Below, piece after piece: positions 7,131 through 46,813 of a stretch of 64,000 nt of DNA. The stretch is from Girardia tigrina (taxonomy: Eukaryota): assembly GCA_001938485.1 (NCBI GenBank), contig MQRK01233137.1:1-64000 (forward strand). The letters run 5' to 3'. The translations under genes were made by a program, and so were the position numbers. Each line of letters begins with the position of its first letter. Position 1 is the first letter of the stretch. The notes below the pieces were generated by a model that saw only the letters and a list, made by a program, of their open reading frames with translations, ran no database searches and was not told where the DNA came from.

Positions 7131-7632
7131 TATTAAGAACATTTAAATAAGTCCCGTTTGAATTTTTATTACAATCACATTTAGGGTCATTATGACTCTC
7201 AGAAAGTCTTTCATCATTTGTCATCTTTCTAATTGGTTTTCTTATTTCTGTTTTAATCATGATTATTCGAACAATTTTCTAAGTTATTTTTTTTAAAATA
7301 TTTAACCTCTAAAAATATTAATCAAAAAATAATAATTTTTACAATTTCTAAATAAATCCCAAAATAATAAAAATGTCATCAAATTATTAAAAATGCATTT
7401 AATTTAAATTTTACTAAAATTATTAAACTTAATTTTAATTGTGAAATTAAAAATACGAATTTATCAAATGATTATTTTAATTATGTTCGAATAGTCAATC
7501 ACTTTAAATTTAAATAAAAAAATACCAATTTCCATCTGGGTGGGAGAATCACCATTCTAAATTCAACATACCTAAATCAACATACAGCATCCATACATTT
7601 ACACATTCAAACAATTTAAAATATTCCTCACA
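7131..7632 (-). repeat. 3' LTR of Gypsy element
   Basis: Near-identical to 10657-11158. Starts TGTGAGGAAT, ends CTTAATA, preceded by short purine-rich GAGGTGGA (weak PPT). Confidence 0.95.
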
Positions 7633-9655
7633 TCCACCTCGGTTTAAATTGCTTTAGCCATTCTACATTTCTGATCAAGATCCTGCCGTTCTCTAGTTGT
7701 ATCTCATAACTTCTTTCGTGTCTTTGCTTTATAATTTTAGCTGGTCCCATATAACGATCATCATCTTTTGATGGGTTAACTTTCTTTATCAAGACTTTAT
7801 CTCTAACCTGAAATATTCGCTTTGTTTCAATTATATTTTTATTTTCTTTTTCTCCACTTTTTCCTTCTGTTGTAGTTTTCCACCAATGTCTTAGTTTTCT
7901 TCCGAAGATTATCTCAGCTGGAGATATTCCAGTTGTTGCTTCAATTGTACCGTTTAACATGAATTCTATTTCTGCCAACATTTCTACCCAATCTCTATGC
8001 ATTTCATCCTGTAATCGTATATTTATGGCGTCTCTTATTGTTCTGAATTGTCTTTCAATGATTCCGTTAGTGTTGTGGTGATAAACGTTTGAATAGATTA
8101 TCTCCGTCTTAAATTTCTTCGTCGTTTCTTTAAAGAGTGCTGATTCGAAAGTTTTCCCTTTATCAACGTGTATCTCTTTTAGTGGTCCGAATTTCCAAAT
8201 CCATTTCTCTAATAGTACCTTTCGTGTAGTCTTCTCGTGTTGGTGTGTCACTGCGGTCAAGCTGATGTATCTACTAAATTGATCGATTATTGCTAAAATG
8301 TATTGGTATACATTCATAGTCCTTCTGAATGGTTCGCAAAAGTCTTCTTAATGTTCTTTTATAAATGTTTTTCTTTGTCTTTTGCAAAGATTAGAATATC
8401 GTCTAGGTATACAACTGCTTCTTTCCAGTTTAATTCTCCTAACACTCTTGTCATTAGTTCTTGAAATGTTGCTGGGGCAGCTGCAATTCCGAATGGCATT
8501 CTTTTAAAACAATATTGGCCGTTCTTTGTCGAAAATGCAGTTTTTAATTTTGAATCGTTCTCCAATTCAACTTGATGATATGCACTCCCAAAGTCGATTG
8601 TGCTGAAGTATTTCGCTCCATTTAATGTATTTAGCATTTCTTCTACATTTGACATTGGAAATGCTGATATGATTGTGACTTTATTTAATTGTCGAAAATC
8701 AACACATACTCGGATATCCTGTTTGTCTTTTTTTCCATGCGCATACTAGCGGAAAATTCCACGGCGCACTGCATTTTTCAATGATATCATTTTCCTCGTA
8801 ATTCTTGATAATATCATCTAGTTTTCCTCAAAGTGTTTTGGCTGTCGGTACGGTTTTACCAATATTGGTTCTCCTTGCGTTTCAATTTTATGCTTAGTTA
8901 GTGTGGTCTTCCCTATATCCCATTTTTCCGCCATAAATATCATTTTATATTATATTAGTAATTTTATTAATTGTTCATCTATTTTATCTGCGTATATTTC
9001 CCTTATTCTTTTAAGTTTGTCTCCATCAGTTAAAGTATCGCGTATTACCAGCATTCCTTCGTCGTATCCTGTTTCTTTATTTAGTTTTATGCTGAATTTA
9101 TTTAGAAAATCAATTCCTGCAATCATTTCGGGTTCTAAATCTTTTACCATAAAAAATCCACTGTTTTCTGTATTCTTTTAATCTTAATCTTTAGTTGTAC
9201 TATTCCGTAATTTACTAGTTCCGAGTCGTTAGCACAGTGTATACGTTTTTTGTCTCCTTTATTTTGACATCTTTGATATTTTTGAGTAAATCTACTTTAA
9301 TTACATTGACTTGTGCTCCCGTATCCAATAGACATCGTACTTTTTTATTCTTTATTTGAAATTCTATATTCGGTCTTCCTTTCAGTTCTTCGTATTCTAT
9401 TTTAAACTTTGATATTTTCATTATATCTGTGCTTCTTTCTTCATCTTTTTCTATGATCAAACTGTCACATTTCTCATTGTGTATTTCATTTTCACCATCT
9501 AATATACACAATTCCTGAGGAATATTTTCAACAGCATCCTATACACAACATATGTCATCATACAAACAATCATTCATACAGTCAAACATACACATACATT
9601 CGTTTCTTAGTGAAGTGTACTGATCACTTCTCCCTGTGACCGTGCCTCCTCGTTT
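7628..9655 (-). pseudogene. pol: pol fragments: aspartic protease, RT N-terminal half, integrase core and C-terminus
   Basis: LLDTGA (protease), MPFG and YLDD (RT), IDQFSR, HVDKG and TNGIIERQFR (integrase). RT C-terminus, RNase H and HHCC are absent at a junction near 8345. Confidence 0.93.
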
Positions 9656-10750
9656 CCCTGTTCGTCTCTGAAATTTTTCTTGTTTGTAATATTTTCTCTT
9701 CTTGTTAGACTTCCTCCTTTATTCGATCTTTCCGACATTTTTTTCCCACTCATCATCAGAGTCTTCTAATTCTGCTACTTGGTCTCTTTTATTCTTATAT
9801 TCCATCCAACCTCTGTACTGTGTGTTTGCGTATTCTTTTCCTTCATTTCTTCTAATCCTTGTATCTTCTCTTCCAGATTGTTCGCGTTCTCTAAATCTGT
9901 TTGGATTCTCATAACATTGTGTTCTTACATGCCCTTTCTTATTACAATGGTTGCATTTAACATTTGGACATTCCTATCTCACATGTCCTTCTTCATGGCA
10001 GGCCCGACATATGATCCTTCTCGCATTAAAATTTCTTCTTGGTTCTTCGATCTTTCTCTCTTCGTATCTTGGTCTCGGTCTTCTTGTTCTATATTCTACT
10101 TTCTTCCATTCTTTATTTTCCTTTGTCGTGTATGCGTCCACTCTTATATTCCTTTGCCCTTTCAGCTCAAATTCGTAAATTTTCTCTTGGATATTTTTTA
10201 TATCTTCTACTTTTGTGGCATTTCTCAGAATCATTTCTTTTCTTACTTCTCTATCTTCGATGGCATTGGCGTAAGCTAGATCTGACAGTTCCTTTTTTCC
10301 TAGTTTTTTCTCAACTAGTTTTTCAAGTAGTTCATCAATCTTTTTAAATATTTCTGATGGATTTTTATCCCCGATTCTAATCTCTACAAGCTCCTTCATT
10401 ATCTCTAAAATATTCTTCTCTTTCGAGAATGCACTTCTCATTCTTGATTCCCAGCTTCCTTCTTGTATCTTCTCATATTTGTTTATCACTTCTGGGGTCA
10501 TGAATGCTGTAACTAATATCTCTTTTCTTTCTTCCATAAATCCCAAAATCTTTGAATATTTCTCAAAGCTTATTAAGAATTCTTCTAATTTTACTTCTGA
10601 CCCATCGAATGTCTCCGGTCTCTTGATCACTGGTGTCACGTGGTCGTGTGTCGCCATATTAAGAACATTTAGACAAGTCCCGTTTGAATTTTTATTACAA
10701 ACACATTTAGGGTCATTATGACTCTCAGAAAGTCTTTCATTGTTTGTCAT
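9607..10750 (-). pseudogene. gag: gag with two CCHC zinc knuckles
   Basis: ORF 9974-10750, then CRACHEEGHVR*EC and CNHCNKKGHVRTQC. Nonsense codon at 9974 and a later frameshift. Slippery GGGAAAC at 9652-9658. Confidence 0.9.
10639..10656 (-). promoter_or_regulatory. Canonical-type primer binding site (TGGCGAC..., possibly tRNA-Arg)
   Basis: TGG immediately after the LTR end. Partial similarity to the complement of the tRNA-Arg 3' end (TGGCGACCACG, recalled). Confidence 0.6.
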
Positions 10751-11158
10751 CTTCTAATTTGTTTTCTTATTTCTGTTTTAATCATGATTAGTCGAACAAT
10801 TTTTCTAAGTTATTTATTTAAAATATTTAACCTCTAAAAATATTAATTAAAAAATAATAATTTTTACAATTTCTAAATAAATCTCAAAATAATAAAAATG
10901 TAATCAAATTATTAAAAATGCATTTAATTTAAATTTTACTAAAAATTAATAAACTTAATTTTAATTGTGAAATTAAAAATATTAATTTATCAAATGATTA
11001 TTTTAATTATGTTCAAATAGTCAATCACTTTAAATTTAAATAAAAAAATACCAATTTCTATCTGGGTGGGAGCATCACCATTCTAAATTCAACATACTTA
11101 AATCAACATACAGCATCCATACATTTACACATTCAAATAATTTAAAATATTCCTCACA
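10657..11158 (-). repeat. 5' LTR of Gypsy element
   Basis: TGTGAGGAAT...GTTCTTAATA followed directly by TGGCGAC. Confidence 0.95.
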
Positions 11159-14100: not shown

Positions 14101-14404
14101 TTTGCCAATGCATAATTTCAATGCTTCCATTAACAATGTAAAATACTAGTCTATTATTTAAAATGAAAAAAGCTTATTTATCATGTGCAAGTTTTTGGGC
14201 CAGGTAACAAAGCAGAGGCGTTAAATTTATTTACAAGCTACGGGTTCGGACTGAGGTCCTCGCTAGATTATAAACAATTAATAGTGTTGGTCATTTCATT
14301 TGTTATATTTTAGTTATTATTAAAAGTATTCTTTTACTTATCATTAGTGTCAGGTCAGAAATATTTTCCAAGTCCTTTAAGGAAACTAGTAAATCAAAAA
14401 AAAT

Positions 14405-14690: not shown

Positions 14691-15811
14691 GAAATATTTA
14701 TAGAAAAAGTAAAAAGAAAAGTCAAATAATAAAAAGCCATAGATGATTATTGATTGACGTAGAAAAAGAGGCAATCTATCAAATAAATGATAAAAATAAA
14801 TTAAACGAAAGAAAGAAATGAATGACCGTACATAATAAGACTCAATTTTTTATTTTAATCATTATATTTTATGAAAATTCAAACAAAAGAAATAAGTAAG
14901 GAATATATTTAAAAAATTGATTTATTGAAAAATTTATGCAAAAAATTGATTGAAAAAACATAAATCAGAAAGTGAAATAATTTCCTTTGTATCACTACCA
15001 AAGGCCAAAAAATAATGTCAAAACAAAGTAAAGCATTTCTGCAGCAACACGTAATCTGGCTCGATTAATTGCCTATTTTTGTATCCTAACAGTCAAAATT
15101 TTTATTATATTATACTGTTAATTATTTCAATTGTATTATATTTCGAACAGATATCCCTTTTCATATGATGAGTCTGTCCGGTTTTAAAAATGACCGATCT
15201 AGAATGCACTTATTTATATTGATGTTTCTATTCTTTGTATGTTTTCTTTGATATGTGTTCTTTGTCTTAAACGTTCCCTGTCAATAATGAAAATACAATT
15301 TTTTTCAAATTTCTTTTTGACATTATTTATTTGATATTGATATATATCGATTTATTTATAGCATTATATGGACTACGAGATTACAAAGTATAGTGTTCAC
15401 TAAATCGTATCAGCAGCAGCAACCAATTAAGAACCTTTTTTTCTTTCAAGTGATATTTAATTTAATTTTTTGGTTTTTAATTATTAAAAAAATGCCTTAA
15501 TTGGATTTGCGACCCCTGAAATTTTTGAGCTGAGAAAAATCCAGATATACATTGGAAAATTTTTAATGTAATTAAAAATAAAATTTTGATTTAAAAAAAT
15601 TATTATCGATGACTGTAAAAAAATTATTATCGAAAACTGTAAAAAAATTATTATCGAAAAACTTTGAGTGAATTAATTTTTGTATTGTTTAAATATATTC
15701 GAATGATTATCGCATTCTTTAAATTTGTTTTCTACGTAATTAAATATTTGAAACCATTCTACTAACAAGAAGACTACTGTTTCAAAAAGTGCAATTTTAA
15801 AACAAGACGAG

Positions 15812-16507
15812 ATGGACAATTCTCCGTTCTCGGAAATGCTTGAAGCGGTCGATAAATTGTTTTCTCATCGAGAAATCACCGAAGACGACATCAAGTCGCT
15901 TCAGGAGAGTATTTTCATGTATATCATTCCGCAATTTAACGAAGCGGTTATTTTGACCGATCTTCTCGGAGTTCCGAGAAATAATTTGTTTAATTCGATT
16001 AATAATGCTTTTATCGATAAAATCAAATTGAAATTATCGAACAGTCGGAATCTGCGGGCGACACGTTTGAGCGGGGTGGACGCGATGATTTGCGTGACTG
16101 ATATCGGTGACACTGGTCATATCACAAAGCATGAAATCCGTGTGTTGTTGCGTCACTATTGGACGAAAGGCTTGACAACACGAGATGCTGCCAAGGCAAT
16201 TTGCAAAGTTGAAAGTAGACAAATGGTTGGAAAAAGTACGGCAATTGATTGGTTCAAGCGTTTCAATAAAGGCAACTTTGACTTCAATGACAATCCTCGT
16301 TCCGGACGACCAACGAAATTGGATAACGATGACTTACAAGCAGAGTTGGACATGAAGCCTTCGTCAAGCACTCGCGATTTGGCATTTAAGCTTGGAGTTG
16401 GCAAGTCAACCATACATAGGTATTTGAAGCAGCTCGACTTTCTGCACAAGAAACCGCGTCAAGATCCACACGAACTCACCAAAGCACAGGCCGATAAAAG
16501 AGTCTAA
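15812..16507 (+). CDS. Chimeric ORF: 99 aa of unknown origin fused in frame to a mariner transposase DNA-binding domain
   Basis: Mariner similarity starts at DTGHITKHEIR (16109). Contains WFKRF, PRSGRP, second HTH and DPHEL linker; stop at 16505-16507. Confidence 0.6.
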   Translation: MDNSPFSEMLEAVDKLFSHREITEDDIKSLQESIFMYIIPQFNEAVILTDLLGVPRNNLFNSINNAFIDKIKLKLSNSRNLRATRLSGVDAMICVTDIGDTGHITKHEIRVLLRHYWTKGLTTRDAAKAICKVESRQMVGKSTAIDWFKRFNKGNFDFNDNPRSGRPTKLDNDDLQAELDMKPSSSTRDLAFKLGVGKSTIHRYLKQLDFLHKKPRQDPHELTKAQADKRV

Positions 16508-17182
16508 ACTTGCCGAAAACTGCTACAAAATCCACGAGATGGCCGCTTTTGGAAACGAATTGTGACGTCGGATGAGAAGTGGGTCTACTTGGTCAACCAC
16601 AACCGAGACAAGCAATGGGTTCCACAGGGTCAAGCAACACCATCAGTTCCTAAACAAGATCGATTTGGCTTAAAAATCATGTTGTGCGTCTGGTGGAACT
16701 TTGAGGTGGTTCAGAACGGCCAGGCCATCAATGCAGAGCTCTATTGTAAACAGCTCGACTGTGTCTACGAGAAGCTCAAGGAGAAGTACCCTGCCTTAAT
16801 CAACCGAAAACGGCTACTATTTCAGCAAGACAATGTCAAGCCCCATACTGCCAAGAAGACCACTCGCAGGTTCCAAGAGTTGAATGCAGTCGAAATCCTG
16901 CCGCATCCTGCTTACAGGCCTGATTGCGCACTATCCGATTATGGCATCTTCCGATCCATGCAACACTTCTTGAAAGGCCGCAGATTCGAAGCATTCGATG
17001 AAGTTGAACAAGCATGTCAAGAGTTCTTCAATTCGAAGCAGCCGGAATGGTACTTTGACCAGATCCGAAAGCTTGCAGACCGTTGGCAGAAAGTAGTCGA
17101 AAGCGATGGACTGTACTTTGAAAATTCTTACACAAAAAATTGTATTTTTCATTCTTGACCAGGAACTTTTAGGACAACCTAA
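16109..17182 (+). mobile_element. mariner (DD34D) element lacking its 5' TIR
   Basis: TSDEKW, QDNVKPH and YRPDCALSDY in the same frame past one stop. 3' TIR revcomp TTAGGTTGTCCTAAAAGTTCCTGGTC ends at 17182. Confidence 0.93.
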
Positions 17183-18320
17183 TTCAAAAGAATCACAAAC
17201 TTCTTTATCGAGTATTCACCTAATGAAATTACAGCTTGAATTCAAAGTTGAAAGAAAAAAACAGAAAGTTCAATGCTGTTTGGATGGAGGAATTCTTTAT
17301 ATTAGAGTAGAACAAAATGTGTGTTTGTTCAATTTGTGAATCATAGATTACCACTATGTAAAGATGTAACCTCAACAATTATTTCAAAGCTGTTTCGATT
17401 GGCTATTATTAAACGTAGCCGGTATAAGATCATGTATTTCTTTTAATGAATCATTAATTGCAATATTCGTTAGTTTAATATTACTTTTCCGATCATTTAA
17501 TGTCCTCATTCATCTAAGTCTTTCAGCGAATTATTTCGATAATGAATGCGCACGTTGCGAGTATCTTCAGATCGTCCAACGAGTCAAAATAAATGTTAAA
17601 CATCTCTTTGTAATCGAAAAGTTCATTTGGAGAAAATATTATTTTGTTGGCGTTCAGAAACATTGGCTGCGCCCATAAACCGGCTCAGCAACATCAATCC
17701 GACCATTTCACACTAATCGTTGTAGATGGCTTGGAATCAGTTTATTTGTTCCAATTTTGAATTTAAATAGCTTCATATAGTAATCATCGGAAATTACGGT
17801 AAACAAACATAAAAAAAATACCGAGTAAGCGAGTAATGTTTATTCTGACGAATTGATATAACTTTTGAATTTATTGAGTACATCTGTAGCTTTATAGAAA
17901 TTGTCTATAGACACACATGGCAATCTTAGTGGGAGGAAGTAATTTTTAATTCAAAATGTCGAATAAGAGGGAACAATGTTCTAAGGTTTCTATTGATATA
18001 TCTAATAATCTTTTAAAAAATAAAATCGATTCACAGAATAAAAAATATCAATAGAAACCTTAGAACATATATCAATACAAAAATCATCACTTACATCATA
18101 CAAAGCCGCATGAGCCAATGCTAATTCATTCACAATTTTATTCCGTAATTTCTTTTCTTTCTCCAGCATTCTTCGCAAGATCTTTCGGTGAATGCTTCTG
18201 ACGTCTTCATTGAGGTTTCTATTGATATGTCTAATAATCTTTTAAAAAATAAAATCGATTCACAGAATAAAAAACTTATAAATTTACGCAAATAATTTGG
18301 TGTTTTTCAATTTGATTTCC

Positions 18321-18461
18321 AAATGTCAAAAGTTCTCGAAATGCAACCACGTTTAAATTTTGTGTTCATGAGAATTATTTTTCCAAATTTCACAGCATAA
18401 ATTTATGGTTTCATTTAGTGGGACATTAGTAAATAAACTAGTCACATCAAACGAAACCATT
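18321..18461 (-). repeat. Inverted copy of a Penelope RT segment at the element 5' end
   Basis: Reverse complement of about 19215-19593 but without the 239-bp insert. Confidence 0.9.
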
Positions 18462-19918
18462 AAGTTTTAAACTTAAGTGATGAAACTTTAAATGAAGATG
18501 AAATGAATTTATTAAAATTTAGTCCTAAACATAGTATTCGTAAAAAAATTAATAAACATAAATTCCAATCAAAAATTATTTTGTATGTTAAAATAATGTA
18601 TGTTCAAGTTTTATAATTTAAATTACCCGCATTTAAATAAAAGCGTGGATTTTGAAAATTTTAAAAATGTACTTTATAAAAATAATATTAACTATATTAA
18701 TAAAAATGCAAAACAAAGTAATAAATATTTTTTAATTTTAAAAAATCTTTCAAAAAAGAATATTAATATCTGTAAATACGATAAAGGTAATGGATTGGTT
18801 ATTTTAAATGAAAAAGAGTATATTAATAAAATGGAAAATGTACTTCAAAGTCAGCAATTTGAAAAAATTGATAAATTTAGCATAAATGGGAAATTAGCCC
18901 CTTTAAAAGATGAAGAACATCTCTCGTCTTTATAAAATAAATTAATTAAAAATGGACACCTTGATGAAAAATTAGGGAAGCAATTAAAACCAATAGGTTC
19001 CCAACCGGCTAAGTTATATGAACTTCCTAAAGTTCACAAGGATGGTGTACCTATGCGTCCAATTCTTTCAATGGTTCAAACTGCACAATATGACATCGCT
19101 AAATTTTTAGACTTAAAGTTAAAATGTTTAATATCTGAAAAGTATGCATGTCGTGACAGTTTTGAATTTTTTAACTTTATTTCCAATTATGAATTAAGTA
19201 ATAAAAATGAATTCATGGTTTCGTTTGATGTGACTAGTTTATTTACAAACTAGTAAATAACCCGTCATGTATGACGGATATAATTATATAGTTATATAAT
19301 TATATAATTACAATTGTAAGTAGATAATTATATTAATAATAATTCATATGGAAAATTATCATGAATAATTCTGCTAATAATAATTTTCCATATGAATTAT
19401 TATTAATATAAATATCTACTTACAGTTGTAAGTAGATAATATGAGCGTTAGTGAAGCAGTGAGTGACTTGGGCTTTTATAAGATAAGATATCCCACTAAA
19501 TGAAACCATAAATTTATGCTGTGAAATTTGGAAAAATAATTCTCATGAACACAAAATTTAAACGTGGTTGCATTTCGAGAACTTTTGACATTTGCCACAT
19601 CAAATATAATTTTTTTATTTAATAATCAATGGTACAAACAAGTGGATGGTGTTGCAATGGGATCTCCATTAGCACCAACATTAGCCTCAATTTTTTTGTC
19701 CAAAATTGAAGAAAATATTGATTTGTTTTCCGGTTATAAACCACTTGTATATAAAAGATATGTAGATGATGTATTTTTAATTTTCGAAAATAAAGATCGT
19801 GTAAAACCATTTCTAAATTATATGAATTCGATCCATTCTAATATCAAATTCACAGTAGAGGAAGAAGTGCAGAGTATTCTACCATTTTTAGACCTATTGA
19901 TCAACAGGAAATCTAATT
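18462..19918 (+). mobile_element. Penelope-like element RT region, decayed, running into an assembly gap
   Basis: DKGNGLVIL, LPKVHKDGVPMRPI, SFDVTSLFTN, GVAMGSPLAPTLA, RYVDD, IKFTVEEE and LPFLD motifs. Confidence 0.93.
19250..19488 (-). mobile_element. Non-autonomous Helitron inserted in Penelope RT
   Basis: Minus strand starts TC and ends CTAG, inserted between A and T with no TSD. Subterminal hairpin CCGTCAT..ATGACGG. Removing it restores FTN-IPL. Confidence 0.9.
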
Positions 19919-21329
19919 NNNNNNNNNNNNNNNNNNNNNNNNNNNNNNNNNNNNNNNNNNNNNNNNNNNNNNNNNNNNNNNNNNNNNNNNNNNNNNNNNN
20001 NNNNNNNNNNNNNNNNNNNNNNNNNNNNNNNNNNNNNNNNNNNNNNNNNNNNNNNNNNNNNNNNNNNNNNNNNNNNNNNNNNNNNNNNNNNNNNNNNNNN
20101 NNNNNNNNNNNNNNNNNNNNNNNNNNNNNNNNNNNNNNNNNNNNNNNNNNNNNNNNNNNNNNNNNNNNNNNNNNNNNNNNNNNNNNNNNNNNNNNNNNNN
20201 NNNNNNNNNNNNNNNNNNNNNNNNNNNNNNNNNNNNNNNNNNNNNNNNNNNNNNNNNNNNNNNNNNNNNNNNNNNNNNNNNNNNNNNNNNNNNNNNNNNN
20301 NNNNNNNNNNNNNNNNNNNNNNNNNNNNNNNNNNNNNNNNNNNNNNNNNNNNNNNNNNNNNNNNNNNNNNNNNNNNNNNNNNNNNNNNNNNNNNNNNNNN
20401 NNNNNNNNNNNNNNNNNNNNNNNNNNNNNNNNNNNNNNNNNNNNNNNNNNNNNNNNNNNNNNNNNNNNNNNNNNNNNNNNNNNNNNNNNNNNNNNNNNNN
20501 NNNNNNNNNNNNNNNNNNNNNNNNNNNNNNNNNNNNNNNNNNNNNNNNNNNNNNNNNNNNNNNNNNNNNNNNNNNNNNNNNNNNNNNNNNNNNNNNNNNN
20601 NNNNNNNNNNNNNNNNNNNNNNNNNNNNNNNNNNNNNNNNNNNAGCTTCACACTCAACTTCTCTGTTAAACATTTTCAAATAGAGCCTTTATTACATGAT
20701 TGATTACATAATCACCTTTCTCATATATAAGCTGCAAAAAGCCAGTGTTAATTTAGTCTGAATATGGCGGGTAATCAGCCGAAATTAATTACGAAAATAA
20801 ATTGTGAAAAATGGCGTTCACTTTTTAATAATGAATATCAATTGCCATTATTTTTTAAATTCCTTAGTAAAGATTATTATATTGTATTAAACCAATCATG
20901 CATTTTTTTAAATAATTCATATTTTTACTTTTTTAATATTAAATTAATATTTTTAAAGATAAATGCATTAATATATTATAATACTAATACTACTACTAAT
21001 AATAATAATTAGTAAAATGAGCATAAGAATGAAACAATAAGGATCGCAACGTTACAAAAGCAATATATGAAAATATATGAAATTTGAAATATCCTCATCA
21101 TATCAGTATGTTTTACAAAATTTATCACTTTTGTAATCAGCTACAATTTTTGTAGAGAAACAATTTTCCAAGACATGTTTTTGCAAAGCCAACCATTAAA
21201 GACAGATTGTTTAATTGAAAATATCATTGACTACCAATTAAGTCAAAAAGTTTTTTTCAAAGATAGACTATATTGTATGTAAAACAAAGATCCTCATTGC
21301 AAAGATAACTAATAAATCTAAAATATGCT

Positions 21330-21950
21330 AGGATAGGAGCCCCTTGACTCCAATCATCGATAGTCTCTGGTGGGCGTTTGTCGATAACTCGTTCCTGTCC
21401 CGAATCCCCTCGACCCGTTTCTCGATCACTCGATCGTGCCGAAACACGATATCCCCGGTCACTTTCACCGCGTACAACCGCACCCTGAGTCCCAGTCGGC
21501 CCAGCACGAGCGCGTCAACGCCCATCCATCCACGCTCTCGACCACCTCGAGATCCCCGCGGTGCGTCCTGCCGTCCCCGACCACGGTCGTGATGTCAATC
21601 CCAATCCTCTGAATCGCCGTCGAGATAAAACTACCAACCAGTCGGTTCCGCTCCCGAAATAACCACCGCCTCCGCGATCCCCTTGGGCACCGCCACAGGC
21701 CTTCACACCATCCTCAGACTAGCCACAACACTTCCCGCCGGAAACCGATCGGACTGGCACCCCCGCCGATACCTTCGAATCCCTTTTGGTGATCGCTCAC
21801 ACCAGCACAGTCGCCGTCTGCTTCAAATGGCCCCTAAACGACTCTCGCCGGATCCTATCCGAGATAATGGCCATCTTTCTTGAGATCAAGGATTTGCCGC
21901 GATAGCTTGTAACAAAGCAATAACGCAAGGCGGTCGAAGCAAGATTTTTT
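21330..21950 (-). mobile_element. GC-rich LTR-retrotransposon-like remnant (LTR end, atypical PBS, degenerate protease-like coding)
   Basis: ...TTGTTACA then AGCTATCGCGGC, then an ATG about 22 nt later. Peptide GSFIS...VVGDGR...GDIVFRHD loosely resembles a retropepsin. Confidence 0.5.
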
Positions 21951-23493
21951 TTGAAATACCAAAACTATGGTGACGAAACACCGATTAAAACAAACGATAA
22001 ATATATATCTACAATTGTATTGAAAATAAATATTCGAAAACCCATATTGGTGTTATTAAAAATTGGTATTCTTAATAAATATTATAAGTATTTTTATTTA
22101 TACCGGTTAAAGATTTATGAATCAAATTGTTTCTAAAAAACGTTTGTTTAAATATTAGTGTTAATCATTATTTTAAAAAACTTTGTATTATAATAATATT
22201 TGCATGTCGGAATCAACTTGTTATAGTAATCCCGATGATGCTCCAAGAACATCTAACACTTATGTTTAATAGTAACATTTAAACATAACTATGATAATAT
22301 CCAACGTAATTCGAGAACATTTTTAATTTAAAAATTTTTTACAGAACTTCTCGATATAAGTAAAATATAAATAAAATAATAATTCATTCATTTATATAAT
22401 TTTTAAACTCAAAAAAATAAATAAAAATTTCCCAGTAATTTAAATGGAAACGATTGGTTGTTTTTTATTGGTCAATCCAGTGAATTTAAACAAGAAATAG
22501 GCTCTGGAAATTTTTATTTGGATATATCAATGAATTTTAATTGTGGTAAGAATACTGTTTATACTTTTTTGACATTTAAAATCGTTATATTATATTATCG
22601 ATTATACAAAAAATATTATTTTATAAATATTATTTCAATAATTCTAACATTTAATAATCAATTTTCAAGAGTTTTTTTTCAATATTGATTTACATTAAAT
22701 TTATTAATTATTTTCGAATATTTTCAAATAATTACAATATTTGAGTGTGATTATTTTAAAATGAAGGGGTCCATGTTTTTTAAACTTTAAATGTTGATCT
22801 ACTAAGTTCGTTTATGTTCACTAAATACGGTTTGGAAATAGACTCATTTCCTAAGTACCTTTGCAATTCTAAAAACGGACATCCTTAAAATCATCAGATC
22901 ATTTTTAAATCTTTCAAAATGTAAAAATAATCATTGAACTGTATCAAACATTTTCGTCATGGTTTTGGAAGTACATATTCTGAATTCTGTGGACATATTT
23001 CCTCGCCCCATACATTTTCAGTTAAACCAATTACACAAACACCAACACATACATCATGAATAGTCAAACACAATACAATTGTTTGTGACTTTGATCAGTT
23101 ACATGATTAACAAAAAATCTCTTACCAGTTTTGATCACCAAATATTGAGTTTGGTTGTCTTTTTATAAGACAGTTAATTTATTTTCTGTTGTCCAAAATG
23201 TATTTACATCATTCTGATCTTGACAAAACATTAGTCTCAAAATCGCTTTGACAAATCACTGTTGCATTCAAACAAAAATTATTCTATTGTAAATGAAAAC
23301 TATTTAGTAACTGTATACTAATTTTCTATCAGTCGATAAAACAAATTATTAAGAGAATTCGATATTTTGTACTTAGAAATTTATTTTGTAAAATTAAGCG
23401 TTGATTTTTTAACACTGTAAGTAGAGGAATCCTGAAATGGGAAACCTCTTGATTTGTAAGGTTATTATATGGACAAGACTGTACCCATATAAG

Positions 23494-24723: not shown

Positions 24724-25952
24724 ATAGGTTGTAAAGTATGAAATTCGTAGGAATGATTACAATAAATTTATATAGTTATAATTTGACAATGACTGAACAT
24801 TGTCTTCCTCAGATTTTTTGTTAGATTGATACATATTTTGGCTATTGAACAAATCAATAAAGATTTATTTAAATTATTGATAACTTGATTTAATAATCAG
24901 TATATCTAAAATGAAAAATGTCGAAATTCGAACTATTGTGAAGTACGAGTTCTACGCGGAACCTCAGCATCAGAAACCGTAGAAAACATCAATATTGTAT
25001 TCGGATACAATGCTATAATACACAGCAGATAGTCTCAAATTGGTTCAGGAAATTCGTGAAAGGTAGTTTTAAATTCAATAATGAGTCTTGGGTTCGCCCA
25101 GGAATTTATTTGGATAATAATAATAATCAAAAAGTATTCATGATTTAGCGCTAACGTTTGCTGTTACAAAACAAACAATATGGAATCACTGGCTCAAACA
25201 GGTAAAAAGAAAAAGTTGGATAAGTAGATTTCACATGAGTGGAATGAAAAGCAGAAACAATAACGTTTGGATGCTTGCTTGATGATGTCATCTCGTTATA
25301 AATGTGATGACTTTTTGAATCGAATCATCACTTGTGATGAAAAATGAATCCAATATGATAATTATAAACGTTGAACAAGCTGGGTGAACACGAAGGAAGC
25401 ACCAAAACACAGTCAAAAGCCCAAAAGAAGTTGATGATAAGTGTTTCTAGGTCTGTCGTAGGTGTAATCGATTATTACTTCGAGAAACCTAGTTTTTTGA
25501 TCACAGAAGATGTATACTGTAACTACTATTCGGACGATATGATGCTGAAACTCAAAGAAAAACATACGCGTTTGATAAACAGGTCGACTCCTATCTTGAT
25601 CCACGACAATGAAAAAACACATACTGCACTTAAGACCGTAAACAAAACTACAGGAACTTGAGTTTGATCTTCTGCATCATCATCCATACTCACTAGATCT
25701 AGGTCTAACTGACTATAATTTCGTCCATAATTTGCAAAACGTTTTTATCGGAAAAAATTTAATTCTGAAGATGCCGTAAAAATGGCCTTCCAGGAATTTA
25801 TAGATTCTCGGCCTCAACAAGCTACCACAGAAATGACATAAGTGCGTCGATAATATGGGTGCATATTTTGATGAATGACATAAATATTTGTATTGGTAAA
25901 TTATCAATAAACATTTACTTTATTTCTACAAATTTCATACTTAACGACCTAA
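24724..25952 (+). mobile_element. mariner element, cecropia-subfamily-like, degenerate
   Basis: TIRs (A/T)TAGGT(T/C)GT(A/T)AAGTATGAAATT with TA flanks. ATG at 24911 gives MKNVEIRTIVKYEF; TCDEK, HDN and YSLDLGLTDY remnants with many stops. Confidence 0.92.
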
Positions 25953-32619: not shown

Positions 32620-33238
32620 TGGTTGCCACTGAGAACCCCTATGATGATTCGTTTCCTTTCATTCGGTGTCTCTCTCACGATAAATATAAGATCATTTGCG
32701 AAAATTTGCTTTGGCCATATTGATTTCTCCCTGGCTTCCGGAGCTCCATGTATCCTTGTTGTTATTTCCGTGTAGTATTTCCGCCATTGAACCATGTAAT
32801 AAACATTTTTTAATCTCCAAATACCTTCGGTTGTACTGGATCATTTCGTTCAGAATATGTTCGGCGACCCGTTCCAAATACACCTGCAACTCGAAAGGGA
32901 GTCAATCAATCAAGGCAGCCTTTGTTAGATCGTCAATCTTTGACGCTAACATCTTCACCTGAGACGCATATTCATCGATAGTCTCGCCCTTGTGATACTG
33001 CAAGTTTGTCAATTGACTGTACACAGAGCGTCTAGTCAGGCCAATTGAATCGTTTAAAATCTTGAAGAACTGATCGCAGCTGCTCTGCAATTTCTCGTTC
33101 GATTTCATTTATATGTTCATTGCCACCCCTGATATTAAAAAACGGAGGTAAGGGGCTAGATCGATAAACCTCTGAATCTTCACGATCGTTTCAAATTTCT
33201 TCTCCCAGATCTCGAAGCTAACGCTTCCATCGAAGAAC
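32620..33238 (-). pseudogene. gag: Second gag fragment of the short-LTR Gypsy group
   Basis: FFDGSVSFEIWEKKF...GETIDEYASQV is alignable by eye with the gag at 34000-35278. Confidence 0.75.
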
Positions 33239-34410
33239 CACTGTAAACATCGATATATTTGTTCAATTCCCTGAAATCGAACACAGGTCTTATCTTATCC
33301 TTATTCAACTGGGTTATACCATAAATGGGGATCGACCCCACTGACGCGCCCATTTTTTCGTAGTCATACTTTATTAAGTATCCTTTTTCCATCCATTTAT
33401 TTAAAATATTCATCGTCGATTTGTCCTTTGGTTTTGACTCATTCAATACAGTTTTTCTCCACGGTTACTGATCGGGGATATCCGATTTCCAATCCCAAGA
33501 AACTGTCCACACTTTGTCAAAACAAATTCTGAAATTATGTTTCTTCGTGCCACCCTCTACAGTAATTCTAGTCCCAGACAACTCGACACTTGGACCCGAA
33601 GTACAAACATTTACTAGATCGGAACTCACCCCAAACTTTACACTTCCATTATGAAACACCATTCCTCCTAATTTCGCAATGACATCAACACCCAACAATA
33701 AATATAAAATTTCCGGCAACGTATTCATTACAATACAATTTTCGATTACCTCTTTATCATCCACGTTGATCCTTGCTGTATATATACACACAAACACCCG
33801 AGACCCATTAGCCAGAGTAACTTGTTCTCGATTCCGCTGCATCAATGGTCCTTCCACATTACATCTTTTCACGACCGATTGCGAACACCCGGTATCCACT
33901 AATGCTCTGCAGTTTTTTTCCATTGACGATACATCGAATAACTGGAAGAGCCTTTAATCCCTCGAGAAGCCGCTGACGCTGACGACACCTCGCTCACGTT
34001 TTCCGCCCGACAGAATCTAGCAATGTGTCCCTTCCTTTGACATCTAAAACATATAATTTTACTCTTGGAAGGACTTTTAGGAAGATCCTCTTCCGTCTTT
34101 TGAACGCTCTTTTCGTCAGCTTCATACGGTTTTTTAACACTCTGATCCGCGCTAACGCCGCTACGACTACATCCTTCCAGTCTATTTATTCCCCTCGATC
34201 GTATAAACTCACCATTGAAGTATGAGTTGTGTTTTCTGCAATACTAATATACGTCCGGCTGACTTCCACTTTTTCACTCCATTCTCGGACTCCTCGTTTC
34301 TCGATTTCCAAAGCGATTTCCGCTGGTAATCCGGCTAAAAATGCAGCGATTTCTAGATTGTCAACCGTTTTTGCCAATTTCGACACTTCCGCAGTGTACT
34401 CATCAATAAT

Positions 34411-34987
34411 ACTTATGAGGGGTTAATTTAAATTTTTATCTCACCTGAATAATTTATTATTTCTTATTTTAAAGGGTAAAATATTTTAATATTAATATGC
34501 TTATTCAATATTTTAAAATTAAAAATGATATAATAAAACAACTATTAAAAAATCAAAAAAGTTTTTAAAAATAAAATATTTTTTAATGTGTTTTTAAATA
34601 TTTTAAAAAANNNNNNNNNNNNNNNNNNNNNNNNNNNNNNNNNNNNNNNNNNNNNNNNNNATGTATCTATTAAATATCTTAAAATTAAAAATGTTAAGAA
34701 AACTATAAAATTTTAAATATTTATTTATAAATAAAAATATTTTTAATAAGCAATTTTAAATAAATTTTGAAAATAAATTATAAATAATTTTTGAAATAAA
34801 TTTTTGAAATAAATTTTCAGGATTTTAAAAATTGAATTGAAAAGAATTTAATAGATTAATCTGTGGCGAGATAATTAAATTAACAGGAAAATTTGTTTTA
34901 AACATGTGAATTTTTATAGAAATAAATTTTGGTGTTAAAAATTGAACTCGAATAGCGACGTTGCAACCACCTCTCACAGTACTAAAA
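34411..34987. mobile_element. Unclassified AT-rich non-autonomous element inserted in gag (copy 1)
   Basis: Collinear with 50585-52447 (acttatga.gggttaa...ttgcaac.ac.tctcaca.tactaaa). TCAATAAT occurs on both sides of this copy. Confidence 0.8.
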
Positions 34988-35279
34988 TCAATAATTAATA
35001 ATACATTTAATACACTGTAATTTACGATAAGCCCCTCGTGGTTTCACACCAAACACTGCATTCAATACTCGAAAAACTTCAATATTCGCTTGTTGCTTCT
35101 CTGACATCTCCATATATATATTGAGGGTCGATCCACTCAACACGAAGGGCATCAATACAAATACATCCTTTATCTGCTGCATCGACGTCAATAAAACGAA
35201 CTGCTTCTTCCACAGTTCTCACGATTGATTCCCATTGAATTTCTCAAGACAATCGAAGATCAATTTCATGTTCGACATA

Positions 35280-35291
35280 GCCCGGATAGCT
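35280..35291 (-). promoter_or_regulatory. Atypical PBS complementary to nt 1-12 of tRNA-Lys(UUU)
   Basis: Plus strand reads GCCCGGATAGCT, the 5' end of metazoan tRNA-Lys(UUU). It lies between the LTR-terminal ACA and the gag ATG. Confidence 0.75.
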
Positions 35292-35449
35292 TGTTGTAGA
35301 GAATGACAATGAATAACAAGTTCCTAAATTGTATTAAATAGAAAGAAACGCGTTTTTCGCAATAAACGGAATATTCAAACAAAATATAAAAATCGAATTA
35401 ACAAAATTATTATTTTCGATTATCATCTCATCCCACACAAATTTAAAAA

Positions 35450-35630: not shown

Positions 35631-35715
35631 ATTTTGAATATTGGAAGACATTTATAATTTATTTATTTATAATTTTGTTGTATTAAATTACGTTGATTTT
35701 TATTTATATGACACT

Positions 35716-36249
35716 TGTGAGGAATATTTAAAATTGTTTGAATGTGTGAATTTATTGATGCTGTATGTTGATTTGAGTATGCTGAACTTAGAATGGTGAT
35801 TGTCCCACACAGATGGAAACTGGTATTTTTTAAATTTAAAGTGATTGACTCGATTGATTCGAACATAATTAAAATAATAAGTTTTTATTATTTTTAAATT
35901 AACAATTTAATTTAAGTTTAATATTTTTTAAGAATAGAAAAGCATTTAATTAACTTTAAATAAATTTAATAAGATTTAAATTAATGTCATTTTAATAATT
36001 TGATAACATTTTTATAATTTTGAGTTTTTATTTAGAAATGATTTAAATTATTATTTTTAATTAATATTTTTAAAAATTATGTATTTTTAAAAGATTTAGA
36101 AAGATTGTTCGAATAATCATGATTAAAGACAGAAATAATGAAACCAATTAGAGCTATGTCAAACGATGAAAGATCTTCGGAGAGTTGTAACGATTCTAAA
36201 TGTTGTAGTAATAAAAATTCAAATGAGAATTGTCTAAATGTTCTTAATA
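35716..36249 (+). repeat. Solo LTR of the 7131-11158 family
   Basis: TGTGAGGAAT...CTTAATA with perfect 5-bp TSD ACACT (35711-35715 and 36250-36254). Confidence 0.95.
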
Positions 36250-36799
36250 ACACTTAAATAATTAAAAATTTTCAATACTTCTTGTTTATTGTTTCATTAT
36301 ATGAAAGCTATTTATTTTATTTAATAATTTTGTATTAATGTTAGAAAAGTCATAAATCATTTTATTTTGTCACTTAATATTTATTATTTATTTTCTGACT
36401 TATTCAAATTATTAAGATAATATATTAAATAGCTTATTTTTCTTCATTATTTTGGATTAAAAAAAGATTGAAACGATTAATTTTTTTCGTAATATTTCCA
36501 TTTTATTAAACTTCAACAATTCATTTTTGTTCAATAATTTATTATTAAAATAACAATTAAATGTTATAAGTTTTATGAATCTATATATATATATATTATA
36601 TACTATTTTATTTTTGAGATTATTTAATTTCAATTATTTTGAATTAAATTTATTAAATATTGAATATTATTATAATTCTTTTCCGTTTATGTATTAACAT
36701 ATCCGAAAACCACAAAAAATCTAAATTTAACACTTTTTGAGGCATTAACAAAAATGCTTTCAAATAAAAGAAGAAAAAGAAAAGAGATTAAAAAAATAT

Positions 36800-41007: not shown

Positions 41008-44000
41008 GGATCTTGTAAAAATTCTGCCCCTAGGGACAGGACTTTAGCATGATCAATTTAAGGGGAGTATTTTTAATAAATGTAATTTTAGGGGTAAAGT
41101 TTTAATAAGGGTAATTTTAAGTGCAGAATTTTGACAAGTATAATTTTTTTACCTATATCAGATACTTTTTATGAACACACGGCAAGAGACTTTAAATGCA
41201 GATATTACATAATTGATTTTATTCTTTTAATCAAGATATGTATTAAAATCAATGATGTTGTGTTCTCATTGTTATCAACAAACAGTATTGACTAAGAAGG
41301 TAACGCCCTTGGACAAATATGTCTGGAATTTTTAAAATAATTTGTTCTAAATGCAATATAACCTTGACCATAAGAAGATGCTCTTTACTGACCATTTCAT
41401 AGATAAGTCTGATGACTTGGTTAGATGTTCAAATGGTCAAATGAAGAGTCTAAAATTTTAATTTTAAAATCTTTGATTATTTCAAGACCTACATTAACCA
41501 ACTGTTCGATTCACCCTGGGGGAGGAAATGAAGGGGATTGACATTCAAAAGGTCAATTCAAAAATGTTATGAAAACGAGCAAGTCACAAAAATCAATTGA
41601 CATTAATGAATATGTTCTTGAAAATCGAAATCTCGCAAACATTTTATTGATTTTGCAGAATTGGTTTTTCGAATCCACCAGGAAGATAATGGATCTTTAC
41701 GAACCTGACAACGAAGATTTCTTCTCTGAATTTCTAAATAAATTTACTGTGAATGACAAAAGAAATACAGTCAATGACATTCCAAACTGACGCGGATTTT
41801 AAAACTCAAACATAAAAAAGAAGTCAATGTTGTAGATAATCAGAATTTCCAGAAACGAAATTATCAAGATATCAACTATAATGAACAATCAATAAGAAAT
41901 GCTTATGGAAATATTCAAAACGATGATGATCTATTGTAATTAAACGTGCAAGTAAAAAATCTAATACTCGATAATCAATCAATATCCAACCAATAGTTGC
42001 TTTTTTTCGAATGTTCGATCGATAATTGTGACAATTGTTTCCGAGTTGTATCAAAATTGTATAAAAAAATAATTGTATTAATAAAAAAACGAACAAAAAA
42101 AATGAAAACTATATAGACATAAAAAATATATCTATATAGTTACAAAAAAGAGAATTTCAAAAAAAGGTAACTTATTTATAATAAAACAATATTGACTTTT
42201 GTAAAAAAAAGTGATTAAGCAAAAATTGTTTTGTTTAAATGGATCTATTTGTTAAAATCAATTCATTGTAAATCCGCGGAATTTTGTAAAAAAAATTTAT
42301 ATACGTGATTGATTTCGTTGTTCATTATTTTTGATTGTGATCTCTTTATTAATCGACCATCTCCAATCAACATTTAAAGTGCTAATGAGGACCGAATCAC
42401 TTTCACAACTAATCAATGTTAATTCTTTATTGAGAAGGGCGAGTTCGGTCCACTGTAATGTTCGCAAATCGAGGCTGAAGAGCTGACTAGAACGGACGGT
42501 CGCGGACGAGTCTCGGATTCAGAGTGGTTCCCAGAATACGAGCATTTGGCTGTCTTTGGTCACGGTGGCGTTGTGGCTCAGAAACTCGGCCCTCGGTTGT
42601 CGGCTTGCCCCAGTGGCCACTGGTCAGGCAGAACACGAGTATCTGATTTGTCCAACCACGATCGTCTCTACCCGACACATTAACAGCAATTTGGTCTAAT
42701 TCTTGCTTCATTTTTTTTATTTCCAAGTCGATAGCAATTTTTGATTCAAGATCCAGAACATCTTCATTTTCAACAAGCAAAGGTGGATTTTCAATATTCA
42801 TATTTATTCGCGTATAATTCATTCAATAATAAATCGATAACTTTATTATATTCCAATTCTACAAAACTTATTAATTCGTTACAACACAAACCAACAAAAA
42901 TTAATTATTTAATATTTATGACAGAGCTATCGGAGCGTGGCTGCAGCACCATGATGCGAGTGGGAGGTTTTCAGGTCGAGGAGAATAAAATTTTAGTGCC
43001 TTATCATGAGAAATAGCTCCTCCTTGGAAAACCTTTTCAAAATTTAATTTATACGTGGCATATGTTTCATAATAGGCACTCATTTTTCAATCTGCAGCAA
43101 GTTTACAGGCTTTGGAATCATCGATGACTCTATGAGTTGATTCATTTATGCAATCCTGTTTTCCTCTCAGAATACGTGGAAGTTCACCACCGATTGTGCT
43201 GTTTCCTAATTTGAAAAGTTGCTCATGAAATTTATAAAGAACGTTTAGGCTTTCCTCTTTTTTCGAAACTGAATACAAATCTCACACCGTTGACCAATTA
43301 GAAAACTGAGAATTAGGCGGCTTAATACCATCATCACGGAGCAATATCAAACAACCATCATCACCGTCCAAATTCGAACCAGTTCTGTCCGCAATGTAGT
43401 AGCTTTTATCTCAGCACAGCCCGCCAAGATCAATCAGGACGGAGAAATCAAGCTCTTTCTCAAGAAAAATTTTCAACCGAATTTTTGATACACAATTTTC
43501 TCGATTCCCACTCCAAAAGAAGAACAAGAATGTATTTGCTGAGTGATTTTGCCTGTGATGTTGACGGGTAATATGAAGCTAAAGCAAGATCACAATTCAG
43601 ACGAAGCCAATTTTCTTGATAGTTCTCTTGCTCAAAAAATTGCTCATTTGCTTGGACCACATGTTACCGAAATGACAAAGGCTTTTTCAAAACAGAGAAC
43701 CAAGGTAAGTCGAGAAATGGTGTCGAAAGCACAGACAAAAGAGCAATCCAAGGTTTCAGATAAAAAGAATATGTGAACTTTTTTTGTGTCTCTCCCGTAC
43801 TCGTCCAGTGTCTCCGCGTTCCCAGCATTGTGCTGCGTCTACACTCCTGCCATCAACACTAACATTTTTAAATGTTTAAGATTAAGTATCAACAGACATT
43901 TTGATATTAATCCTGTTAGGCTGCGTGTTAATAATGTAGACTGTTCAATCGATGAAAGTCTATTTTGCCATAAACAAAGATACCATCGAGGTAAAGTTCC

Positions 44001-45204: not shown

Positions 45205-46813
45205 TTCATAAGTCGTCGTCTTAAGATATGGAACTATACTGCGATGTAATGTAAAACTTTTTGAATATGATATAAATGTATTACGACATGGTTTTTTACG
45301 CAGTACAACTTGAAGACATGAAAAGAAGAAGGTTTTACAATAATTGTTCAAAATGTTCACCATTTTTCTGTAAACACAGATTGCACCGCTCCACAAAATT
45401 CGTGTAGCATTTTCGAATGATGCGGTGATCGATGTCTGAAATGGCGCCTTGTAGTTCGTCGAGGTTCAGATAGTTATTTTCGATGGCGTAAACTCGATCT
45501 TTGACGTAACTCCATAGCCAGAAGTCAGGTATCGTCAAATCGTGAGACCGAGGTGGCCATTCCTGGGGTCCTCTACGACCAATCCATCTTTGTGGGAAAT
45601 GTTCATCCAGCCACGTTCGCGCTGCAATGCTGAAATGCGGGGGTGCGCCTTCATGTTGATACCAGTGTTGCGTGTTATCCCAAACAAAAGGCAGCAACTT
45701 CTGATTAAGAACGTCGACATATCGTACCTGGTTCATTGTTTCACGGATAATACTGAAAGTTATTCCAAGGTCGTAGGAAACAGCTGCCTAAACAGTTAAT
45801 CCCGGCGATTTCATAGGCACACGAATCAAACGATGTTCATTCTCTTCAGAATAATAAAAAAGATTATGCTTTCCCACATGACCATTAAAATAAAACGATG
45901 CCTCATCAGAAAAAATAATTCTTCTGCAAAAATTGGTGCCATTTTCGTTGATTATCCAAGAACAAAATTCAATTCTTCGATCTGGGTCATCTACTGTTAA
46001 CTATTGTTGAAAAGAAAACTTGAAAGGCTTTACCTTTTCTTGCTTGAGGTAACGATGAAAAGAACTCTGCGAAGTACCAAGGACACGTGTAACCCGTCGT
46101 TGATTTGCAGTATCGTTTTCTTTCACATACTGAACAACACTTTCCTTCATGTGTTCATCAGATGGTCTTCCTGATCGCGGTTTTGTTGACAAATTCCCCG
46201 TTTCTTCGAATTTCTTCTTCCAATGCTGAACCGTTGTTTTCGGTGGCGGTTCACGTTTGAAACGCTCTTTAAACATTTGACACGCTTTTGTGCAGCTTTC
46301 ATAAACGATTGCATGACTAGTGATGAAAACTTTATCTTTAATAGAAAATTCGACATTTCCACTTGCTTCAGCCACTGTACTGGCAGTTGGCGCATTTGAA
46401 TAAAAGTGAAAGTACACAAACTAATATCAGACATTTAAAATTTCAATTTCATAGATATTGAATAACCGGATAATCAATCAATAGGCCGTAAACAATCNNN
46501 NNNNNNNNNNNNNNNNNNNNNNNNNNNNNNNNNNNNNNNNNNNNNNNNNCTTTATAAGAGAAAAGGTCGAGTCAGACATCGATCACCGCATCATTCGAAA
46601 ATGCTACACGAATTTTGTGGAGCGATGCAATCTGTGTTTGCAGAAAATGGTGAACATTTTGAACAATTATTGTAAAACCTTCTTCTTTTCATGTTTTCAA
46701 GTTGTACTGCGTAAAAAACCATGTCGTAATACATTTATATCATATTCAAAAAGTTTTACATTACATCGCAGTATAGTTCCATATCTTAAGACGACGACTT
46801 ATGAATCGCACGG
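45205..46813 (-). mobile_element. Tc1/mariner rosa (DD41D) element with an inverted second 3' end
   Basis: PRSGRP, FSDEA, QHEGAPPH and WPPRSHDLTIPDFW; stops at 46001 and near 45781. 46572-46813 is an inverted copy of 45205-45439 ending in TIR plus TA. Confidence 0.9.

Follow-up and report, generated by a model that had tools for sequence, protein, structure and literature searches.

A conserved 12-nt site behind the LTR of a widespread animal retrotransposon lineage matches tRNA 5' ends and may be its primer-binding site

A 12-nt sequence placed directly behind the LTR was found to be a conserved mark of a widespread lineage of animal LTR retrotransposons. Two sites with its pattern lie in the window, which is the whole 64,000-nt stretch of DNA analysed here and consists of AT-rich eukaryotic DNA with N gaps and numerous decayed mobile elements. 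Judged from its sequence, we hold with moderate confidence that the 12-mer is a site primed by a 12-nt tRNA 5' fragment, which the element's own RNase H probably frees. The features of the window that bear on this reading are the following.

21896-21907, minus strand: putative primer-binding site AGCTATCGCGGC, complementary to tRNA nt 1-12, likely of tRNA-Phe.
21908-22258, minus strand: putative 5' LTR of 351 nt, TGT...ACA (ends read; 24 contigs diverge beyond 22258).
21797-21874, minus strand: frame of 25 codons from the ATG named in the earlier note, with no gag profile match.
21357-21895, minus strand: GC-rich non-coding inside of a multicopy, non-autonomous element, as judged from contig depth and diverged copies.
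21340-21356, minus strand: weak hairpin (TGAT tgga GTCA) with AGGGG, which resembles the hairpin and polypurine tract of the lineage (resemblance only).
35280-35294, minus strand: sister site, ACA followed by AGCTATCCGGGC, complementary to nt 1-12 of tRNA-Lys(UUU).
33231-35278, minus strand: decayed gag-PR-RT start of the element at 35291 (gag and pol profile matches), interrupted by an insertion at about 34450-35000.

The earlier note, made from the letters of this DNA, had described an LTR-ACA, a 12-mer and a nearby ATG on the minus strand, and these read as claimed over 21917-21872. Specifically, CTTTGTTACA at 21917-21908 is followed by AGCTATCGCGGC at 21907-21896, such that 21910-21896 reads ACA (21910-21908) and then the 12-mer, and the ATG stands at 21874-21872, 21 nt past it. 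The pattern ACAAGCTA-N4-GGC (ACA-AGCTA-N4-GGC) has two matches in the window, at 21896-21910 and 35280-35294, both on the minus strand, and 100 shuffles of the window gave a mean of 0.01 matches and a maximum of 1. Because the pattern was derived from these two sites, the real control must come from outside the window. In the lineage loci described below (317,808 nt), CAAGCTA-N4-GGC occurred 53 times in the sense and 0 times in the antisense orientation, in 49 of 78 loci. Folding around the site gave no stable structure that covers it (z of −0.6 to 1.6 in six of six folds). A scan of the window and of 60 of the 78 lineage loci detected no tRNA genes. Two other stretches of the window, AGCTATCGGAGC (42925-42936, plus strand) and AGCTACGGGTTC (14236-14247, plus strand), are site-like, lie off the pattern and have no gag downstream. 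Positions 42925, 14233 and 25817 were rejected as further sites, with the pattern not fitted and no gag match.

The element at 35291 provided the coding link to a lineage. Downstream of its site, a decayed gag and a CCHC finger come first, then a protease and the beginning of a reverse transcriptase (RT). The gag profile matches are collinear, at 35272-35015 (E 1.3e-12), 34407-34270 (weak, E 0.15) and 34096-33965, and a pol match spans 33935-33231 (E 1.9e-46). The PR-RT piece is 91% identical to a protein, P0001, that has RT, DUF7047, RNase H and integrase domains. The order in the lineage is gag-PR-RT-DUF7047-RH-IN, with PR-RT-RH-IN assigned by Pfam on P0002-P0004. At 32860-33234 (minus strand), the RT start of this element is joined to another gag fragment of the lineage, in which the 5' end is missing.

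A protein search over 1.84 billion representatives returned 548 proteins at E 1e-30 or better. Named members come from Trichuris, Trichinella, Petrolisthes, Macrobrachium and Amphibalanus (whipworms, Trichinella, decapods and barnacles), and matches in the Atlas were RT/RH clusters without names. An alignment of 49 proteins yielded 179 confirmed stretches of metagenome contigs; the best 80 of the 179 gave 78 loci, on which all locus counts for the lineage are based. In viral contigs, none of 49 candidates was confirmed as a member, and 18 matches of a 16-mer had no gag or pol. The lineage consists of LTR retrotransposons with gag, protease, RT, RNase H, a DDE integrase and a purine tract before the 3' LTR. 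Four loci (L008, L011, L027 and L058) have two direct LTRs, TGT..ACA, in elements of 4042-4325 nt; a target-site duplication of 5 bp is perfect in L027, has one mismatch in two of the four and is absent in L008. The D/E/D/D residues of RNase H were intact in all 49 proteins, the RT carries a YIDD/YVDD catalytic motif, and the motif W-x-G-P-[FYH], sought as a sign of a GPY/F module at the integrase end, occurred in 8 of 49 proteins. The gag finger was CX2CX4HX4C in 36 of 41 gags and CX2CX8-10HX4C in none of the 41.

Several features of these loci and their relatives were observed apart from the site itself. In 34 of 36 polypurine tracts from the lineage (for example L058:5440-5459 and L077:4385-4410), a hairpin of 5-7 bp with differing stem sequences adjoins the tract, compared to a mean of 2.5 and a maximum of 8 of 36 tracts in shuffles. 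This hairpin may position plus-strand priming. Five loci (L001, L017, L048, L049 and L060) show the LTR and site again after pol, like tandem elements or one-LTR circles, and these repeats may be assembly cycles. In L059, a tRNA-like stretch with a T-run lies between site and gag (1845-1945), with no ARAGORN or Rfam call. Two longer proteins, P0098 and P0113 (1393-1416 aa), have RT-RH in common with the lineage and a longer integrase region; the Atlas clusters nearest to their RT-RH part include Euglenozoa records.

The 12-mer was present at the LTR/gag junction in 58 of the 78 loci. Eighteen of the other 20 lacked the gag 5' end and the junction. Of the remaining two, L007 retained just the final 8 letters, where the junction is rearranged, and L015 had 7 letters at a contig end. 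The 58 loci fall into 46 families at 80% pol identity, with pairwise identities of 34-77% (median 42%). AGCTA-N4-GGC fitted 41 of the 46 families and five deviated. Positions 2-5 of the 12-mer were identical in all 46, position 1 in 45 and positions 10-12 in 43-45, whereas positions 6-9 varied as discrete types. The edge of conservation is sharp and falls after base 12, which corresponds to tRNA base 1: position 12 was fixed in 44 of 46 families and position 13 in only 26. The variant AGCTATCGCGGC was found in 11 of the 46. The LTR repeat stops at ACA exactly before the 12-mer in all four loci with both LTRs, which differ in their flanks. The reading of ACA as an LTR end was thereby seen in 4 of 4 such relatives, and we infer it for the copy at 21908.

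The 12-mer lies 0-26 nt upstream of the gag ATG in most families, a position that would also suit a tRNA-binding signal for packaging or translation control, with priming elsewhere. We consider such a signal very improbable, given that the 12-mer abuts the LTR end exactly, that no other primer site was found, and that the site is kept in the non-coding island at 21.3-22.3 kb with no gag after it. Directly after the LTR end, the 12-mer stands where a primer-binding site must be.

Comparison with tRNA sequences supported the primer-site reading and its 5'-end geometry. Three variants equal published 5' ends of tRNA-Phe or tRNA-Lys, as given in the accessible parts of the sources. AGCTATTTCGGC, carried by 11 families, forms the end of a Drosophila probe for tRNA-Phe GAA (PMC7038984); AGCTATCCGGGC is the 3' end of a zebrafish 5'tRF-Lys(TTT) probe, the fragment itself starting with its complement (PMC4688932); and a Triops probe for Lys-CUU ends in AGCTAGCCGGGC (PMC4501094). 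Four other variants match tRNA starts in viral contigs. These include tRNA genes that start with the complement of AGCTATCTAGGC (L107, Phe GAA), of AGCTACCTCGGC (L104, anticodon CAT) and of CGCTACCGAGGC (L127, Phe GAA; one of six matches was a tRNA). The C at position 1 of L067, a site assigned visually in a copy whose LTR ends are decayed, corresponds to G12 of the tRNA-Phe in L127. Starts with GCCGCGATAGCTCAG, the complement of AGCTATCGCGGC, belonged to a called tRNA in 17 of 22 cases in viral contigs (12 Thr, 4 Phe and 1 Met). Since these tRNAs are not those of the hosts and such starts are common, the viral-contig matches establish the geometry and no more. The start GCC....TAGCT is shared by many tRNAs, and agreement between a single variant and some tRNA therefore counts for little by itself. 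Two variants (complements GCCGTGAT.. and GCCGTAAT..) had no tRNA match, and a third (complement GCCGGGAT..) was matched to a tRNA in a literature-search listing alone. The tetramer ACTG, which would extend pairing into the D loop, occurred in 9 and 10 of 46 flanks against a background of 14%, which is not convincing.

The isotype paired with AGCTATCGCGGC had been proposed as Phe- or Thr-like. In a pol tree (FastTree), this variant is interleaved with the Phe variant, L024 for example standing beside L058 and L069. This interleaving favours Phe, and on these sequences tRNA-Phe is the likelier partner and Thr the less likely. The suggestion that a conserved mechanism uses different tRNAs is supported and extends well past two elements, in that a lineage-wide 12-mer after the LTR matches several tRNA 5' ends.

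Other primer types were looked for in the same loci. No TGG was present within 6 nt of the LTR end in any of the 46 families, and no canonical 3'-end site for the same tRNA was found elsewhere in them; a canonical tRNA 3' site was consequently rejected as the primer. An ordinary element of the window (7131-11158, minus strand) does have a TGG site, at 10656. That element is decayed, its LTRs are 95% identical, and its TGG site overlaps the gag ATG; a solo LTR of it (77%) lies at 35715-36250 (plus strand), upstream of the 35291 element. Self-priming as in Tf1, in which the 5' end of the transcript itself serves as primer and the tRNA likeness is due to chance, would fit the similar length (11 versus 12 nt) and the missing spacer. 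A complement of 11-12 nt was absent from every complete LTR, however, and among the 58 loci the longest self-complement of the 12-mer was at most 7 nt in the LTRs and at most 8 nt in whole loci, and it was 5-6 nt upstream of the two window sites. With no locus exceeding 8 nt, Tf1-type self-priming fails, and the exact match of three published tRNA starts further argues against it; we find this explanation scarcely credible.

For priming by a tRNA 5' fragment, we propose three steps. In the particle, the site would invade the acceptor stem and D stem of the tRNA and form 12 bp; the site-tRNA duplex was calculated at −18.7 to −23.5 kcal/mol, with the cost of unfolding the tRNA not subtracted. 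The tRNA would then be cut between nt 12 and 13, which would leave a 3'-OH facing the last A of the LTR. Plus-strand synthesis would finally copy the primer to its 5' end and rewrite the site from the host tRNA in each cycle. Copying to the 5' end would explain why conservation breaks off sharply at base 12 and why close relatives carry swapped variants. In LTR reverse transcription, the primer 3' end is presented at the base next to the LTR, as described in the accessible text of PMC7175516. Here that base pairs with tRNA nt 12, which implies either a cut at this place or extension from an internal hydroxyl.

The enzyme for the cut is suggested by Tf1: according to the same part of PMC7175516, its RNase H acts on a comparable duplex and cleaves the element's RNA between bases 11 and 12. 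This precedent and the intact RNase H residues favour a cut by the element over host-made fragments, and by analogy with the Tf1 11-mer the element's own RNase H probably cuts the tRNA. The same primer could instead be made by the host, from tRNA 5' fragments cleaved in the D loop, trimmed to 12 nt under protection by the site and then extended. Fragments from the 5' side of the same tRNAs exist in animals (PMC4688932, PMC4501094), and copia and Ty5 prime from truncated tRNAs (PMC10886601). The fragments in the accessible parts of these publications are 30 nt long or tRNA halves, however, not 12 nt, and a fixed D-stem end across 46 families would better fit a cut measured on the duplex. We therefore regard a host-made primer as unlikely, while still a reasonable competitor to cutting by the element.

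Synthesis could also start elsewhere on a bound tRNA 5' strand, either from a primer of 10 nt, in which case integrase would trim AG as a spacer, or from a 2'-OH inside the uncut tRNA. The 2-3 variable bases between the G-run and TGT on the opposite side would agree with trimming. Extra bases at that place are seen in elements with trimmed ends, and branch priming is known from retrons. Positions 1 and 2 are nonetheless fixed in 45 and 46 of 46 families, and the lone change at position 1 has its counterpart in a tRNA with G12, which together indicate pairing through nt 12. Such a start is quite improbable in our estimate, and pairing over all 12 nt with a cut after nt 12 remains the preferred reading.

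The island at 21.3-22.3 kb carries the site in a non-coding context. The ATG past the 12-mer had been implied as a gag start; its 25 codons have no gag similarity by profile or BLAST, which contradicts this. A gag/protease remnant was likewise rejected by profile, BLAST and frameshift-tolerant scores (the island scored 48, four shuffles scored 49-62, and the decayed gag of the 35279 control scored 110). The inside has a fold z of 0.51 and no match in Rfam, and blastn agrees with the earlier note that it is unrelated to the element at 35280.

Copies of the island were followed in contigs from X1 and X2, two runs of a single study that may cover the source of the window itself. Over 21289-21996, a contig identical to the window reached a depth of 206, compared with 51-54 in the flanks, and the run contigs also contained many copies that differed by 10-17%. 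In X1, 24 contigs carry unrelated flanks beyond 22258, where TGT begins, which points to a likely LTR of 351 nt. Summed depth in X1 was very high over 21978-22253, where the AT-rich middle may attract low-complexity contigs. Several contig joints end at 21893-21895 with a short side of 21-28 letters, which fits copies with the same site and LTR end. The deepest contigs (56 in X1 and 46 in X2) diverge at 22013, indicating that the commonest relatives carry another LTR 3' part. No solo-LTR edge at 21908 was seen among the contig matches listed, and the contigs of run X3 (organism B) gave no coverage of the island. A second copy of the 351-nt LTR was found neither elsewhere in the window nor as a 3' LTR after AGGGG. 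This copy accordingly showed no LTR pair, and it showed no duplication.

The hairpin at 21356-21340 has 3 Watson-Crick pairs only, while 34 of the 36 tracts in the lineage have 5 or more. A stretch of 14 nt shortly past the site (21878-21891) is the reverse complement of the hairpin-tract motif of L058, possibly by chance. The island is likely a truncated, non-coding, TRIM-like passenger that keeps the site. Its membership in the lineage is suggested by the 15-nt junction and the weak hairpin and tract, without a coding link, and an autonomous relative with lineage enzymes would move it, to judge from the junction. Like a TRIM as defined in PMC10886601, it has a short non-coding inside with a primer site, may have a tract, and is multicopy; it differs in lacking a 3' LTR and duplication in this copy, and with two 351-nt LTRs it would measure about 1.3 kb versus the limit of 1000 bp given in that source's accessible text. 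Consequently, we call it TRIM-like and not a TRIM. Decayed mariner/Tc1-type transposases or long-TIR elements were also observed in the window at 15752-17158, 25020-25752, 50946-51791, 45205-46805 and 18310-19605.

The lineage was compared with known elements. It resembles Ty3/Gypsy (Metaviridae) in its gag(CCHC)-PR-RT-RH-IN order, TG..CA LTRs, 5-bp duplication and purine tract, and differs in lacking a TGG site and in having DUF7047 between RT and RH. Its RT motif is GFGL in 39 of 49 proteins, versus PFG/TFG in the reference rows compared by eye, and GFGL had no matches in the accessible supplement text of PMC11673190, including the 418-taxon data set. By eye, its RT and RH motifs look DIRS-like. 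Troyka/Kuafuorterviruses are likewise an LTR lineage of aquatic animals outside the standard clades (PMC12440569, PMC11673190). As described in the available portions of these papers, they have CG..CG ends, 3-bp duplications, a CX2CX8-10HX4C finger and IADD/VADD/LADD, whereas the present lineage has TGT..ACA, 5 bp, CX2CX4HX4C and YIDD/YVDD; identity with Troyka/Kuafuorterviridae was rejected on ends, duplication, finger and RT motif. The accessible text of PMC12440569 makes no mention of a primer, PBS or tRNA. The lineage could be one of the MolGy clades, as far as the available part of PMC6238403 describes them.

As to primers, Tf1 and sushi use the first 11-12 nt of an RNA 5' end beside the LTR, where a cut frees the 3'-OH (PMC7175516 and PMC4600332, in their accessible parts). 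The proposed RNA here differs in being a host tRNA acting in trans, in a lineage without a self-complement. Copia, Ty5, Osser, Bryco, Bianca and the fungal Helenus are primed by half tRNAs and share the 3'-truncated tRNA primer; their primers stop within the anticodon arm and have been reported from Copia lineages with their TRIMs (accessible text of PMC6317226 and PMC10886601). In the present lineage, by contrast, the proposed end is at nt 12 in the D stem, pairing covers nt 1-12, and the order is of Gypsy type with the integrase last. The available portion of a 2019 survey recognises three primer types, namely whole tRNA, half tRNA and self-primer, with half tRNAs in Copia lineages only (PMC6317226).

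The type of element is known, and its primer type appears undescribed. No description of a tRNA 5'-end priming site was found in the literature searched, as judged mostly from titles and the openings of abstracts, whose scope left out Repbase Reports, most subscription journals and bioRxiv supplements, so that an earlier record of the site is possible. Within their accessible text, PMC4600332, PMC12859917, PMC13524379, PMC3587641, PMC4402516 and PMC11042837 contain no such site. We tentatively suggest a fourth primer class, which could well prove too broad a claim: in an unnamed, widespread lineage of animal LTR elements that combines DIRS-like motifs in RT and RNase H with a DDE integrase, the RNase H would cut host tRNA-Phe or tRNA-Lys after nt 12 so that the front piece primes, as an in-trans counterpart of Tf1 self-priming. 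If true, a 12-nt tRNA 5' fragment would be a fourth primer type that connects the Tf1 route with priming by tRNA fragments. Screens restricted to the last 12 nt of tRNAs, such as that in the accessible part of PMC13524379, would record no primer site for the lineage. The reading predicts a reverse transcriptase that cuts or uses tRNAs in the D stem, and elements of this lineage would be possible targets or sources of 5' tRNA fragments.
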